In this document: positions 39,484 to 61,682 of the stretch, in pieces
How the letters are laid out: each line of letters begins with the position of its first letter
How positions within the stretch are numbered: position 1 is the stretch's first letter
Assembly: GCA_040753015.1 (NCBI GenBank)
Contig: JBFMHM010000006.1
Location: forward strand, 20,467-84,466
Origin: Candidatus Omnitrophota bacterium
Lineage (GTDB): Bacteria; Omnitrophota; Gorgyraeia; Gygaellales; JBFMHM01
Reading direction: 5' to 3'
Length of the DNA stretch: 64,000 nucleotides
Notes under the pieces: generated by a model
What the model was told of the DNA's origin: nothing
The model's input: only the letters and a program-made list of their open reading frames with translations
Database searches by the model: none
Program-made: the position numbers and the translations under genes

Positions 39484-40616
39484 AAAAGCGTGTTGTTATT
39501 GCGATGTCAGGTGGCGTAGATTCATCGGTTGCTGCTTATTTATTAAAGAAGCAGGGTTATGATGTCATTGGTGTTACAATGTGTTTTGGCTTAGATGTAG
39601 GCAGTAACAATTTAAAGAATAAACCTAGTTGTTGTGGTTTGTCAGGTATTAATGATGCTAAGAGAATTGCAGGGCAGTTAAATATTCCCCATTATGTAAT
39701 AAATTTTACTAAAGAATTTAAAAAATATATAGTTGATGATTTTGAAAAAGAGTATTTAAAAGGCAGAACACCTAATCCTTGCATTAGGTGTAATGAGTTT
39801 ATAAAATTTAATGCATTATTAGATAAAATTAAGCAATATGATGCAGATTTTTTGGCAACTGGACATTACGCCAGAATCGGCGAAATCAAAAATCAAAATG
39901 CAAAAATCAAAAATTATTTTTTAAAAAAAGCAAGAGATCACAAAAAAGACCAGACGTATTTTTTATATCGGTTAACGCAAGAACAATTAAAACATATTTT
40001 ATTCCCTTTAGGTAATTTAACTAAAGAAGAAGTAAGAATTATTGCCAGAGAGGCAAAACTTTCAGTTGCCGATAAGCCAGGTAGCCAAGAAATTTGTTTT
40101 TTATCTGGTACTAATTATAAAGATTATTTTAAAAATCATTTTGGTAAAAAAATTAAAGCAGGTTTAATGGTTGATGTAAAAGGTAATGTCTTAGGTCAAC
40201 ATAAAGGTTTGCCATATTATACAATTGGCCAAAGGCAGGGATTAGGAATAGCGCTTGGTAAACCAATGTATGTAATCAAAATAGATATTAAGAATAACAC
40301 TGTTGTTGTAGGAGATGATAAAGATAGATATTCTTATGGTTTAATCGCAAAAAATCCCATTTTTATCGGAGCGCAGAATGCGCGAAGATCCGCCAACGGG
40401 TTAGTGACGGATTATACTAAAAATAGCAAGCTTGTGTTATCGGCAAAGATAAGATATAATCAAAAAGAAGCAAAAGCTAAAATTACAAGTTTCTATAATA
40501 ATAAAATAAAAGTTTTGTTTGATAAGCCTCAGAATTCTATTACTCCGGGGCAAGCAGTGGTTTTTTATAAAAAAGATATAGTTTTAGGTGGAGCGATTAT
40601 AGAAAAAGTTGTATGA
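39480..40616 (+). CDS. mnmA: tRNA 2-thiouridine(34) synthase, with in-frame GC-rich insert
   Basis: PP-loop VVIAMSGGVDSS. Start taken at MKKRVV. Insert at 40371-40412. Confidence 0.85.
   Translation: MKKRVVIAMSGGVDSSVAAYLLKKQGYDVIGVTMCFGLDVGSNNLKNKPSCCGLSGINDAKRIAGQLNIPHYVINFTKEFKKYIVDDFEKEYLKGRTPNPCIRCNEFIKFNALLDKIKQYDADFLATGHYARIGEIKNQNAKIKNYFLKKARDHKKDQTYFLYRLTQEQLKHILFPLGNLTKEEVRIIAREAKLSVADKPGSQEICFLSGTNYKDYFKNHFGKKIKAGLMVDVKGNVLGQHKGLPYYTIGQRQGLGIALGKPMYVIKIDIKNNTVVVGDDKDRYSYGLIAKNPIFIGAQNARRSANGLVTDYTKNSKLVLSAKIRYNQKEAKAKITSFYNNKIKVLFDKPQNSITPGQAVVFYKKDIVLGGAIIEKVV
40371..40412. repeat. GC-rich double-hairpin element, family B (degenerate copy), in frame within mnmA
   Basis: GCGCA-gaa-TGCGC gaa GATCCGCC aacgggttagtga CGGAT. 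Coincides with a ~12-aa insertion relative to typical MnmA. Confidence 0.5.
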
Positions 40617-41518
40617 AAAAAATAATAATAGAAATCCAAAAATTAAGAAAAGAACGTAATGCGGTAATTTTAGCACATAACTACCAAGCGCCAGAAATAC
40701 AAGATATTGCGGATTATTGCGGTGATTCGCTCGAGTTGAGTAGGATCGCAGCAAAGTCACAAGCGGGTATAATTGTTTTTTGCGGCGTACATTTTATGGC
40801 TGAAACTGCTTCGATTCTTTCTCCAGAAAAAACAGTAGTTGTCCCCGATATAAATGCGGGATGCCCTATGGCAAATATGATTACTAGACAGGATTTAATC
40901 GAACTTAAAAAACGCCATCCAAAAGCTGTAGTTGTAGGTTATGTAAATACATCGGCAGAGGTAAAATCAGAGTTAGATATTTGCTGTACTTCGACTAATG
41001 CAGTTAAGGTAGTGGAGTCTCTTAAAAATGCGCCAGAGATAATTTTTGTTCCAGATAAATACTTGGCTGATTATGTTTCAAAAAAAACCGGCCGTGTATT
41101 AATTTCTTGGGATGGTTATTGTCCAACACATGTAAAAATTTTACCAGAAGATATTATGAGGGAGATCCGCAGGCATCCGAAAGCAACAATTTTAGCCCAT
41201 CCTGAATGCCGGCCGGAAGTTATTGCATTAGCTGATGAAGCGCTTTCTACAGGCCAAATGTGCAAATATGTTAAAGAGACGAAATATAGGGAGTTTATTA
41301 TCGGCACAGAAGTTGGCCTTATCTATAGGCTTAAAAAAGATAACCCTACGAAGGAATTCTATCCGGCATCAGATAAGGCAATTTGTCCAAATATGAAACG
41401 CACTACTTTGGAAAAAGTATTATGGTCGCTCCAAGATCTTAAAGAAGAAGTTAAGGTGCCATATGATATTCAGGTAAAAGCCAAAAAGGCAATAGATAAA
41501 ATGCTTGAGATAATTTAG
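40613..41518 (+). CDS. nadA: quinolinate synthase
   Basis: NadA three-repeat architecture with conserved Cys ligands. Confidence 0.9.
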   Translation: MKKIIIEIQKLRKERNAVILAHNYQAPEIQDIADYCGDSLELSRIAAKSQAGIIVFCGVHFMAETASILSPEKTVVVPDINAGCPMANMITRQDLIELKKRHPKAVVVGYVNTSAEVKSELDICCTSTNAVKVVESLKNAPEIIFVPDKYLADYVSKKTGRVLISWDGYCPTHVKILPEDIMREIRRHPKATILAHPECRPEVIALADEALSTGQMCKYVKETKYREFIIGTEVGLIYRLKKDNPTKEFYPASDKAICPNMKRTTLEKVLWSLQDLKEEVKVPYDIQVKAKKAIDKMLEII

Positions 41519-41531
41519 GGGAGGTTAGGAG

Positions 41532-42023
41532 ATGGATGAGATTTTAGAGGTATTAGAAAAAGATGCACGTAGGTGTCCAGAAGATATAGCGCGGCTTACA
41601 AAACGCAGTACGGATTCAGTTAAAAAAGCAATAAAGAAATTTGAAAAAGACGGTGTGATTCTTGGTTATAAAACGATAATAAATAAAGATGCTTTAGACA
41701 AGGATGATAAGGAAAAAGAAGTTTTAGCGTTAATTGAGGTGAATATTATGCCTCAAAAAGATTTAGGATTTGACCATGTAGCAGAACGTATTTATTCATT
41801 TAGCGAAGTAAAGTCTTGTTATCTTATTTCAGGGACTTATGATTTACTTGTGATTGTGCAAGGGAAAGACTTGCATACAGTTGCAAAATTTGTCGCTGAG
41901 AAGCTATCCCCCCTTGAACATGTGAGAGGCACAGCGACCCATTTTCTATTAAAAAAATATAAAGAAGACGATATAATTCTAAAACATAAAGGAGAGAATA
42001 AAAGAATTGCAATATCATACTAA
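41532..42023 (+). CDS. Lrp/AsnC-family transcriptional regulator
   Basis: N-terminal HTH LEVLEKDARRCPEDIARLTKRS plus a RAM domain. Confidence 0.8.
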   Translation: MDEILEVLEKDARRCPEDIARLTKRSTDSVKKAIKKFEKDGVILGYKTIINKDALDKDDKEKEVLALIEVNIMPQKDLGFDHVAERIYSFSEVKSCYLISGTYDLLVIVQGKDLHTVAKFVAEKLSPLEHVRGTATHFLLKKYKEDDIILKHKGENKRIAISY

Positions 42024-42054
42024 GCGAAAAACGTAAAGCGAAAAATGTAAAATT

Positions 42055-60168: not shown

Positions 60169-60185
60169 AAGGAATTCAAAAATCT

Positions 60186-60220
60186 CTGCCAAAGGCAGAT
60201 CCGCCTTAGGCGGAAAAAAT
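60186..60220. repeat. GC-rich double-hairpin element, family B, intergenic gltB-gltD
   Basis: CTGCC-aaa-GGCAG-GATCCGCC-tta-GGCGG-AAAAAAT. Confidence 0.65.
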
Positions 60221-60242
60221 CAAAAATCTAGAATAAAATAAT

Positions 60243-61682
60243 ATGGGAGATATTAGAGGATTTATAAAAATTAAGAGGGCACAGGTAACATATCGCCCGG
60301 TATGCGAGCGGATAAAAGACTACAAAGAAGTTTTTGTCTTACGTCCAGAAACAACTTCACAAGAACAAGGCTCTCGCTGTATGGATTGCGGTACACCATT
60401 TTGCCACTGGGCGTGCCCGGTTGGAAATTATATTCCAGAGTGGAATGATGCTGTATTCCGTAAAAATTGGGAAAAGGCATTTAATTTACTAAGTGCAACA
60501 AACCCTTTACCGGAAATTACCGGCAGAGTTTGCCCGGCGCTTTGTGAATATTCTTGTGTACTTGGAATAAATGATGAGGCAATTACGATAAGGGAAAATG
60601 AGCTTTCCGTTGTTGAGCACGCATTCAAAAATAATTTAATTAAAGCGCATCCACCGAAGATTCGTACGAAGAAAAAAGTTGCTGTTATTGGTTCTGGGCC
60701 AGCAGGGCTTTCAGTTGCAACAACTTTAAATAAATTTGGCCATAACGTAGTAGTTTTTGAAAAAGACGATAAAGTTGGTGGAATTTTACGTTATGGCATT
60801 CCAGATTTTAAATTAGAAAAATATGTGTTAGACAGAAGAATAAAAATTTATGAAAGAGAAGGAATTAAATTTGTTACAAATACAAATGTTGGTGCAGATT
60901 ATTCAGTAAAAAAACTCTTAAAAGAATTTGATGCTGTATGTTTAGCCGGCGGAAGCCGTGTTCCTCGCGATTTTCCGCCGAAGGCTGATCCGCCTCAGGC
61001 GGAAAATATTGAAGACCGTAATTTAGATGGAATTCATTTTGCGATGGATTATTTAATCCAGTCAAATAAGCGAGTACGAGGAATTAAATTTAGTGCCGAC
61101 AAATTAATTGATGCAAAAGGCAAGCGTGTTGTTGTAATTGGCGGCGGCGATACCGGAGCAGATTGTGTTGGAACTGCAAATCGTCAAGGTGCTAGTTGTG
61201 TTGTGCAAATTGAAATTATGCCAAAACCGCCGGAATGCAGAACAGAAAATTTCCCATGGCCAAAATACCCGCTTATTTTAAAGACATCAACTAGTCATGA
61301 AGAAGGGGCCGAGCGCAAGTGGAGTATCTTGACTAAGAAATTCGTCGGCGACAAGCAGGTTAGGGCGATTTTATGTGTTAGAGTAGATTCGGCAATGAAA
61401 GAAATTAAAGGCAGCGAATTTGAAATTGAAGCAGATTTAGTAATCTTAGCGCTTGGTTTTATTGGCCCAGAGTACAACGGTTTGATTAAAGAGATAGAGA
61501 CGCATTGCAATGCGTCTCTACTAGATGCGCGCGGTAATGTAAAAACAGATAGTAATTATCAAACAAGCGTAAAAAAAGTTTTCTCCGCAGGCGATATGCA
61601 CAGAGGCCAATCTTTAGTTGTCTGGGCAATTTACGAAGGCATCGAAGCCGCAAAAAATATTAATAAATTTTTGAGGGGTTAA
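60243..61682 (+). CDS. gltD: glutamate synthase small subunit (NADPH)
   Basis: N-terminal Fe-S Cys clusters, FAD/NADPH motifs [10 protein letters not shown] and [12 protein letters not shown]. Contains two palindromic inserts. Confidence 0.9.
60975..61008. repeat. GC-rich double-hairpin element, family B, in frame within gltD
   Basis: CCGCC-gaa-GGCT-GATCCGCC-tca-GGCGG-AAAATAT, translated as [12 protein letters not shown]. Confidence 0.65.
61495..61520. repeat. perfect 26-bp palindrome, family C, in frame within gltD
   Basis: TAGAGACGCATTGCAATGCGTCTCTA, translated as IETHCNASL. Sits at a position where other GltD proteins lack ~8 aa. Confidence 0.75.

Follow-up and report, generated by a model that had tools for sequence, protein, structure and literature searches.

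We report a short repeated DNA element, here called family B, in a 64,000-nt stretch of the genome of Candidatus Omnitrophota bacterium (contig JBFMHM010000006.1 of assembly GCA_040753015.1, positions 20,467 to 84,466 of the forward strand; we refer to the whole stretch as the window), where it occupies the two glutamate synthase genes gltB and gltD and the spacer between them. Family B is best explained, with a probability that we put at around 0.7, as a very small non-autonomous selfish palindromic insertion element. The inserts are exactly 30 bp long, they come without a target-site duplication (TSD), they use a T|A target (the bar marks the junction), and they consist of a pair of hairpins; they descend from a master sequence, have spread, and decay in place. 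Taken together, these properties are the signature of a non-autonomous selfish element. The initial annotation of the window had described a dispersed double-hairpin repeat found both between genes and in frame within them, and that description holds: the genic copies are insertions relative to orthologues, the pattern turns up elsewhere on a massive scale, and the segments are absent from close homologues.

The copies in the window were identified using a covariance model (R1) built from foreign-genome copies only. From 88 non-redundant source copies (90 in the position table), the model uses 50 distinct copies plus their reverse complements, for a total of 100 aligned sequences with a two-hairpin structure. 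The reverse complements were added because the element is nearly palindromic and the search pattern had fixed one half of it. Run on the whole window with filters off, R1 gives exactly three strong matches, with E-values from 8.9e-13 to 1.6e-11, and after those it finds only half-matches to a related family, family A, at 58171 (E=0.03) and 33344 (E=0.41).

The strongest match is the spacer copy (60182-60217, E=8.9e-13), with sequence ctgcc-aaa-ggcag-at-ccgcc-tta-ggcgg-aaaaaa, in which the first stem is compensated (CTGCC/GGCAG) and the second loop is TTA. As DNA it folds into two hairpins with -11.6 kcal/mol (z=-5.7), and it is flanked by a 10-nt direct repeat, TCAAAAATCT, read from the sequence on the plus strand at 60176-60185 on the left and 60220-60229 on the right. 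The gltD copy (60971-61006, E=9.9e-12) reads ccgcc-gaa-ggctg-at-ccgcc-tca-ggcgg-aaaa in frame, with a half-changed first stem (CCGCC/GGCTG); the 30-nt insert proper, 60974-61003, lies between GATTT and AAATATT. The gltB copy (57670-57705, E=1.6e-11) is a 10-codon insertion encoding STQGGSAFGG, in what we call the SAxGGSAxGG frame; its sequence, ccacc-cag-ggcgg-at-ccgcc-ttt-ggcgg-aaaa, has a weakened first hairpin (CCACC/GGCGG). The initial annotation had listed three copies, and two of them, placed at 60186-60220 in the spacer and at 60975-61008 in gltD, are present as described with the boundaries corrected above. The third on that list was a segment of mnmA, which we discuss below; the third canonical copy is instead the one in gltB, which had been overlooked. 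It was exposed by pattern searches, in which GATCCGCCNNNGGCGG with up to 2 mismatches has 10 matches in the window against 0.14 expected, and CCGCC-N3-8-GGCGG has 3 against 0.10 expected.

The genic copies can be compared with empty sites. In an alignment of 18 GltD proteins, the ten extra residues of the window protein fall exactly at the element, and the comparison with the solved B. subtilis GltD (PDB 7MFM) leaves a 10-residue gap at the same place. The closest empty gltD orthologue reads AGA GAT CTA AAT ATT GAA, and the window gltD reads CGC GAT TT[T CCG CCG AAG GCT GAT CCG CCT CAG GCG GA]A AAT ATT GAA; the insert is thus the 30 nt TCCGCC...GGCGGA between TT and AAA, with no duplication. 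A poor AlphaFold model of the window GltD computed from the 18-sequence alignment (mean predicted local distance difference test, pLDDT, of 58.9) tentatively places the insertion in a low-confidence coil, residues 237-259. The window gltB copy is likewise a 10-codon insertion before AAA that is missing in three GltB orthologues. The cleanest insertion case comes from two related Omnitrophota contigs, L120 and L134, which are 82.5% identical in nucleotides across 8.8 kb, and where a 29-30-nt gap corresponds to a canonical family B in the L134 gltB: TTC [TCC GCT GAA GGC GGA TCC GCC TCC GGC GGA] AAG in L134, and AAA TTT AAA GAA in L120. At the three sites resolved to the nucleotide (gltD, the gltB site LLKF|K, and the window gltB copy), there is no TSD.

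Could these segments be ordinary coding sequence, encoding a native peptide motif? They are in frame, and one clade of GltD proteins (P0004/8/23/52) keeps the inserted peptide unchanged. But an intergenic copy exists, the frame in which this DNA is translated varies from gene to gene, and the segment is missing from the solved structures and from 112 of the 120 best GltD homologues, which makes a native motif scarcely credible.

The 8 filled proteins among those 120 homologues do not all group together. Five belong to one clade (79-94% identical), indicating vertical inheritance. The window protein, P0049, and P0034 stand apart from it, and the proteins closest to them (75%, 76%, and 85-89% identical) lack the insertion. 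Filled GltD proteins are thus found in four places of the tree, next to empty nearest relatives at 72-89% identity, and at least four gains or many precise losses are required. The DNA of the gltD element is known for five lineages. The copies in the window and in L120 are identical at 26 of 30 positions while the fourfold sites of gltD are just 30% identical, and such a high element identity would reflect either youth or constraint. Two other lineages have compensated stems that cost amino-acid changes: TCGCC/GGCGA in L135, at the cost of Pro-to-Ser and Glu-to-Lys, and CAGCC/GGCTG in L136. Two metagenome contigs (L149 1447-1514 and L187 8372-8439) have at the gltD site an 18-nt in-frame remnant, GAT TCG CCT ACG GCG AAA (peptide DSPTAK), in which only the second hairpin is left and which shows decay in frame with the first hairpin lost.

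Different variants occupy the gltB site PTTLRSLLKF|K in 5 lineages: the window has family A, L134 has canonical family B, L187 has family B with a 9-nt loop, L180 has a decayed family B, and L122 has family B with a nested loop hairpin. The same site is empty in L120 and L126. The presence of different variants at one site indicates that they do not all come from one event, and that the site attracts insertions. The attracting sequences are ATTT|AAAGA in gltB and GATTT|AAAGATT in gltD. On the other hand, the window holds 132 TTTAAA and 18 TTTAAAGA sites that are mostly unoccupied, so both site choice and protein tolerance matter. Family B is sparse in relatives: another 53 gltD-bearing metagenome contigs (332 kb) add just a further two full copies, each of them located at the hot spot in gltB. 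A scan of the gltD site in metagenomes with a pattern that needed GATTT and AAR, not both of which are present in the known filled alleles, reports 51 empty sites, 2 half-element remnants, and no full copy.

The 36-bp consensus of family B is TTTT-CCGCC-RRA-GGCGG-AT-CCGCC-TYN-GGCGG-AAAA, and the inserted unit is the 30 bp TCCGCC-nnn-GGCGGA-TCCGCC-nnn-GGCGGA. The two stems are 6 bp long, and 99.7% of their cells are paired, as opposed to only 24-49% in slid registers. The second pair of each stem covaries (C-G 86, A-T 10, T-A 3), double-side changes are observed in 26 cells versus 2.3 expected, and the covariation score is reached by 0 of 500 shuffles. The hairpin is maintained by compensatory changes. 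Lone TCCGCC-nnn-GGCGGA hairpins essentially never occur in 850 kb of related loci, where the 470 strand-counts correspond to two per double element; it is therefore the doublet that is the unit. A perfect palindrome at birth is ruled out because the middle loop positions are complementary less often than by chance (20 of 96 copies versus 36.6 expected). The dominant form is instead asymmetric, AAA/TCT (reverse complement AGA/TTT), and this asymmetry argues for descent from a master sequence and not for repeated de novo formation. Outside the stems, only the stem-adjacent base (T...A) is near-fixed; beyond it come three positions rich in T on the left side and in A on the right side, and then wider AT-rich flanks in which TTTAAA shows a 3.5-fold enrichment.

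How widespread is this element? We scanned one genome per bacterial and archaeal species for the exact pattern GGCNGATCCGCCNNNGGCGGAAAA, and found it in at least 119 genome stretches. By an approximate tally of record titles, roughly half of them are Patescibacteria (candidate phyla radiation, CPR), about 18 are Omnitrophota, about 14 belong to the Planctomycetes-Verrucomicrobia-Chlamydiae (PVC) group (Kiritimatiellae, Lentisphaerae, Verrucomicrobiota, and Planctomycetia), and several are Ignavibacteriota. Among the matches listed there are also single cases in Nitrospiraceae (from a whole-chromosome record), Elusimicrobia, Zixibacteria, Margulisbacteria, and others, and about ten genomes that bear an unchecked Gammaproteobacteria label. 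The G+C content of the element loci ranges from 31% to 63%. In Ignavibacteriota, copies are inside Por_Secre_tail domains, the C-terminal sorting domains of the type IX secretion system (T9SS), at L029 3051-6152, L033 1359-3284, and L076 2751-3158; in these three proteins the element is at the same position of the sorting domain, ..V.F[SAxGGSAxGG]D..SSG.YFY. The T9SS C-terminal sorting domain is typical of the Fibrobacteres-Chlorobi-Bacteroidetes (FCB) group, and copies within it thus indicate that the spread across phyla is not just mis-binning. We infer that the family has moved between phyla by horizontal transfer. Phages do not seem to be the vector, a candidate that we reject because viral, phage, and plasmid collections are nearly empty: searches, in which the BLAST low-complexity filter was on, report 5 exact family B and 2 family A matches among the 2.9 million viral contigs, while the 72,556 plasmids and 50,697 phage records have no match.

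All the genome matches listed are metagenome-assembled genomes (MAGs) or single-amplified genomes (SAGs), with no cultured isolate among them, and it is fair to ask whether the element is an artefact: an adaptor or linker, an assembly chimera, or mis-binned contamination. The center of the element is a BamHI site, as in cloning linkers, and the literature matches to its 12-mer, all unrelated and non-microbial, are by their titles primer or linker occurrences. These copies, however, vary in loops and stems with compensatory changes, are in frame within genes, and are inherited and diverge within a clade of orthologues that come from different studies and sample sources. In addition, the contigs come from many projects, some are megabase-scale, two of the records were deposited as whole chromosomes, and the Ignavibacteriota copies are within T9SS sorting domains. 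We regard an artefact as very improbable.

Other repeats are found around family B in some of these genomes. In Kiritimatiellae MAGs, the double hairpin opens a repeat of about 185 nt (L006 4569-4752 and 6390-6572; also in L002, L058, L043, and L108) that continues with ...GTCATTCCGAGCGTAG... and a second long hairpin, and TTCCTATGC always follows on the other side. A degenerate double hairpin is nearby, at L006 4770-4815. Elsewhere (L122 9808-10001, L125 651-808, and flanks in L010, L064, and L095), we observe intergenic AT-rich "word" repeats and long imperfect inverted repeats, such as aaactctaaaccctaaac ... gtttagagtttaggatttagagttt, gattgaagattaaagat, and tandem units of cctttcaccttctaa, in which family B copies are often embedded.

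Genic copies are translated, and selection on the encoded peptide has left a trace in their frame. Between 49 and 60 of 121 copies are well inside long open reading frames (ORFs), compared to about 74% of random positions, so that copies are depleted in genes but far from excluded. Of the 60 ORF copies, 46 are in the frame that encodes SAxGGSAxGG (F-S-A-x-G-G-S-A-x-G-G-K; binomial p=8e-12), about 6 are in the Pro-rich frame of the window gltD, PPKADPPxAE, and about 8 are in an Arg-rich frame for which some of the ORFs are probably false. Within the SAxGGSAxGG frame, the AAA/TCT sense (Lys...Ser) is found 21 times versus 4 for the AGA/TTT sense (Arg...Phe), and the second loop residue is Ser in 35 of 48. 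These biases in frame and orientation indicate that the genic copies are translated and then filtered by selection on the peptide. The length of the element, 30 nt, is a multiple of three, and its invariant stem and junction positions yield no stop in any of the six frames; stops are possible only via particular loop triplets, which are rare among copies. It is A-runs and not T-runs that follow the hairpins on both strands. Thus, the reading frame survives an insertion, transcription is not terminated, and the protein gains about 10 residues.

The initial annotation had also proposed that the spacer copy could act as an RNA structure between gltB and gltD. More generally, family B could be a functional host signal, be it an RNA structure by which the gltB-gltD mRNA is regulated or stabilized, a structure that terminates or attenuates transcription, or a site in DNA that some host protein recognizes. 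The structure is kept by compensatory changes, and one copy is located exactly between two co-transcribed genes, in a spacer of 74 nt (gltB ends at 60168 and gltD starts at 60243). There is also a precedent in the repetitive extragenic palindromic (REP) elements of enterobacteria, which have been co-opted in this manner, with roles that are hypothesised (PMC3733652). The spacer copy, however, belongs to the same family as the genic ones, and across many phyla the element occurs in genes and spacers that are unrelated. Orthologous operons function in the absence of the element, including several loci in which gltB and gltD overlap with no spacer at all, and the element decays by in-frame deletion. 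An Rfam 15 search with gathering scores of the window and four related loci has no match in the window, and only tRNAs in one of the related loci. A terminator scan of the three window copies reports no site on the plus strand, only a weak antisense one at 60199-60185, and an A-run rather than a U-run follows the hairpins. A role as a host signal is thus improbable, and the RNA structure proposed for the spacer copy finds no support in these searches.

If family B is a selfish element, how would it move? In the mechanism that we favor, the 30-bp double hairpin would land at a T-rich|A-rich junction, ideally TTT|AAA(GA), without duplicating the target; an enzyme supplied in trans would recognize the two DNA hairpins and make the copies; and selection would then retain mainly those copies that are in tolerant surface loops and in the SAxGGSAxGG frame. 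Our best guess for the enzyme is a single-strand-DNA HUH/Y1 transposase of the type of IS200/IS605 and of the REP-associated tyrosine transposases (RAYTs). The IS200/IS605 TnpA proteins and the RAYTs work with two hairpin ends, insert beside a 4-5-nt target, and make no duplication. It is because such enzymes need two hairpins, insert beside a short target, and leave no duplication that an HUH/Y1 enzyme would be favored here.

Several observations weigh against this interpretation. No transposase is found in the 8-kb flanks of 119 loci, where an all-against-all clustering of 2291 ORFs gave generic families only; in L006, two repeated copies enclose a 149-aa ORF that matches nothing in Pfam, and the neighboring ORFs are ordinary enzymes. 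The orientation of 21 intergenic copies has no link to GC skew, in a comparison of low power, when a mechanism acting on single-stranded DNA of the lagging strand predicts one. About 15-20% of the copies, including the one in the spacer, have flanking direct repeats of variable length, 8-19 nt, that a clean mechanism without TSD does not explain. Strain polymorphism provides no help, as the two contig pairs with identical GltD are 99.99-100% identical, have no presence/absence difference, and are uninformative. Finally, the recurrent occupancy of the same codon could in part be the result of an old insertion followed by many precise losses, or of recombination between orthologues. A fixed TSD, which we also considered, is ruled out by the exact insertions without duplication and by flanking repeats that are a minority and variable in length.

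With respect to candidate genes, the 10 window ORFs scanned, mostly in the nitrogen-assimilation region, include no transposase. A small ORF similar to GIY-YIG nucleases is located 27 nt from family B in L069 (about 6464-6514) and about 270 nt from it in L002 (about 4481-4750). Only those 2 loci are found by a motif search, and a BLAST cluster of similar ORFs includes 4 of the 119 loci, too few for a general association.

Several of these results are also those expected if there were no dedicated transposase, and the copies were made by the replication and repair of the host, through template switching, microhomology copying at A/T runs, or the capture of a hairpin oligonucleotide at a blunt TTT|AAA break, and then spread between orthologous genes via homologous recombination after DNA uptake. 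The flanks contain no associated gene, and no bias with respect to the replication strand is seen. About 15-20% of copies have flanking direct repeats whose length and offset vary, such as the 10-nt repeats of the spacer copy; this is what template switching, unlike a fixed staggered cut, should produce. Moreover, the hot spots are in very conserved segments (PTTLRSLLKF and PRDLKIEGR) that would be fit for recombination between species. Yet the same gltB site has both family A and family B, so the recombinational spread of one allele is not the whole story; the flanks of the gltD element are not unusually similar between the window and L120; and 30 near-invariant nucleotides with exact boundaries across many phyla are a better fit to a sequence-specific enzyme. 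For those reasons we consider an origin by replication and repair unlikely, and we prefer a selfish element mobilized in trans.

Family B is not a member of any of the known systems that it resembles: Rickettsia palindromic elements (RPEs), REPs and their doublets (REPINs), transposable elements of the miniature inverted-repeat type (MITEs), or the GC clusters and double-hairpin elements (DHEs) of mitochondria. As REPs and REPINs, it is a GC-rich imperfect palindrome of 20-40 bp that propagates as a doublet, has no TSD, and carries no gene. The doublet and not the single hairpin is reportedly the propagating unit of REPINs, according to Bertels and Rainey in 2011. But family B has neither GTAG nor CGTC, and its ends are TTTT/TYBT-CCGCC and GGCGG-AAAA in the position table; about half of its copies are in ORFs, and 2/3 of those in the window are genic; and it is found across phyla, whereas REPINs are specific to a species and its RAYT, with no RAYT seen in the 8-kb flanks. 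REPs are extragenic, with a GTAG or CGTC tag at one end (PMC3733652).

The likeness to RPEs is in behavior. RPEs are also selfish palindromes without a gene of their own, and they are found in frame in unrelated housekeeping genes, where they add a peptide and leave the protein intact (PMC10969869). They are about 150 bp long, form ten families, and have been described from the genus Rickettsia (PMC10969869); family B is 30-36 bp, GC-rich in often AT-rich genomes, and present in many phyla. With the PATE-like elements derived from IS200/IS605, family B shares the two hairpins, the T|A target (often TTT|AAAGA), and the lack of a TSD. The GC clusters of yeast mitochondrial DNA and the DHEs of fungi are short GC-rich hairpins in AT-rich genomes, some of them in frame, and they are presumed to be mobile. 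To our knowledge, no enzyme is known for them. They differ from the bacterial and cross-phylum family B in being organellar, with unrelated sequences and other sizes. The DHEs of fungal mitochondria are mentioned in PMC4618339 and PMC3787672. As for MITEs, family B has 30 bp, the whole of it is one palindrome, there is no TSD, and no parent insertion sequence is seen in the 8-kb flanks. MITEs typically have 50-500 bp, terminal inverted repeats, and a fixed TSD. Named examples have about 190-235 bp with terminal inverted repeats and direct repeats, and Correia, ERIC, Chunjie, and QMITE are all like family B in being non-autonomous, with an inverted-repeat structure, and sometimes in forming in-frame fusions (PMC10969869). 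What is unusual about family B is how small it is, how little it varies across phyla, and that it encodes a linker-like peptide. No account of it turned up in searches of the open literature (subscription journals being outside their coverage) by 12-mer, by encoded peptide, and by descriptive terms, which brought up only unrelated papers and background on known elements (mitochondrial DHEs and RPEs), and this 30-36 bp element is apparently undescribed.

The window includes other hairpin families. A family A double hairpin in gltB (58171-58217, encoding SAKGETSPQSGGK) sits at AAATTT|AAA, the site that holds family B in other Omnitrophota, and a second copy in the ORF 32796-33788 (33341-33385) is in the same frame as that one, SAKGETSPLRGGKK; its second stem is compensated, CGCCAC/GTGGCG versus CGCCGC/GCGGCG. 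A degenerate, family A-like GC-rich segment (55554-55598) is in an N-terminal extension of GltB that is missing in orthologues. The initial annotation had noted arms common to families A and B, and had suggested a common origin or a shared recognition sequence. The common arms are borne out by the match of R1 to the first hairpin of family A at 58171, and the suggestion is supported by the same type of target, the shared first hairpin, and the gltB site that holds either family. A third palindrome, family C, TAGAGACGCAnTGCAnTGCGTCTCTA, has an 11-bp stem (z=-5.7) and is found at 61495-61521 and 63609-63635. The first copy is read in frame within gltD, whose product exceeds its orthologues by 5 residues at this point (IETHCNASL), and the second is downstream of the CTP synthase gene. 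Within the NAD synthase ORF 53483-55117, a GC-rich hairpin at 54219-54252, GGGGCGGCC-ccaagt-GGCCGCCC, may be an in-frame insertion of yet a different family.

The mnmA segment that the initial annotation had included in family B is indeed an insertion, of about the size that had been claimed. It is a GC-rich stretch of about 13 codons on the plus strand (40371-40412, with ...AQNARRSANGLVTDYT...), which consists of one good hairpin and a GATCCGCC half-site. Relative to its closest homologue, P0122 from L137 (65% identity by BLASTP, 68% in the alignment), the window MnmA has 13 extra codons (39 nt) at the segment, both in the protein alignment and in the DNA. Its membership in family B, on the other hand, is not demonstrable: R1 does not recover it even at E≤10, only the first hairpin GCGCA-GAA-TGCGC is convincing, and the whole segment is no stabler than shuffles (z=-1.5). 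It may be a decayed element or a different one. The same MnmA loop (window 40330-40430) bears unrelated insertions in other Omnitrophota, for instance in P0144 and P0147 (INPVR...SNGV, up to about 55 aa), and seems to be a hot spot that tolerates insertions from several families of elements.

The window has a G+C content of about 34-35%. Both glutamate synthase genes are on the plus strand; gltB (55504-60168, large subunit) carries one family B and two family A insertions, and gltD (60243-61682, small subunit) carries one family B insertion and one family C palindrome. Altogether, the window has 8 copies of families A, B, and C, of which 6 are in the 6.2 kb that gltB-gltD occupy, a region that is 9.7% of the 64-kb window (p of about 2e-5 by our own binomial estimate), and gltB and gltD orthologues in other Omnitrophota also repeatedly carry insertions. 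Possible reasons for this clustering are persistent TTTAAAGA codon strings in conserved loops, single strands exposed by high transcription, or the import of the operon from a genome richer in elements. The surrounding region, 45373-63283, is a nitrogen-assimilation cluster with elements within it, and includes an ammonium transporter, P-II, a minus-strand glutamate-synthase-like gene, a type III glutamine synthetase, an AAA_14/DUF4143 ATPase, NAD synthase, gltB, gltD, and CTP synthase, in an order that is partly kept in related contigs. Elsewhere in the window, two stretches offset by 8269 nt (17258-17470 and 25527-25739) that have no relation to the hairpin elements are 72-75% identical, and are probably paralogous genes.

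In its boldest form, which we consider rather doubtful, our interpretation would make family B the smallest mobile DNA so far seen in bacteria, copied by a new hairpin-directed mechanism that makes no TSD and prefers TTT|AAAGA, which has crossed at least ten phyla of uncultivated bacteria, often host-associated or ultra-small, and which, in either orientation, encodes a Gly/Ser/Ala linker and is invisible to expression. If the interpretation is true, one 30-bp sequence links Patescibacteria, Omnitrophota, PVC bacteria, Ignavibacteriota, and others with which they have groundwater and sediments in common as habitats, and would provide a direct tracer, simple to search for, of the gene flow between lineages that resist cultivation. 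Mobile DNA would then reach down to sizes well under those of MITEs and RPEs, and there would be a question to answer: what copies a 30-bp double hairpin into TTT|AAA without duplication? For annotation, the element accounts for loops of about 10 residues, either Gly/Ser/Ala or Pro-rich, in GltB, GltD, and T9SS sorting domains, which in alignments appear as spurious "lineage-specific insertions". It also marks permissive loop positions that are usable in protein engineering, and it would be a natural generator of loop insertions in conserved enzymes.

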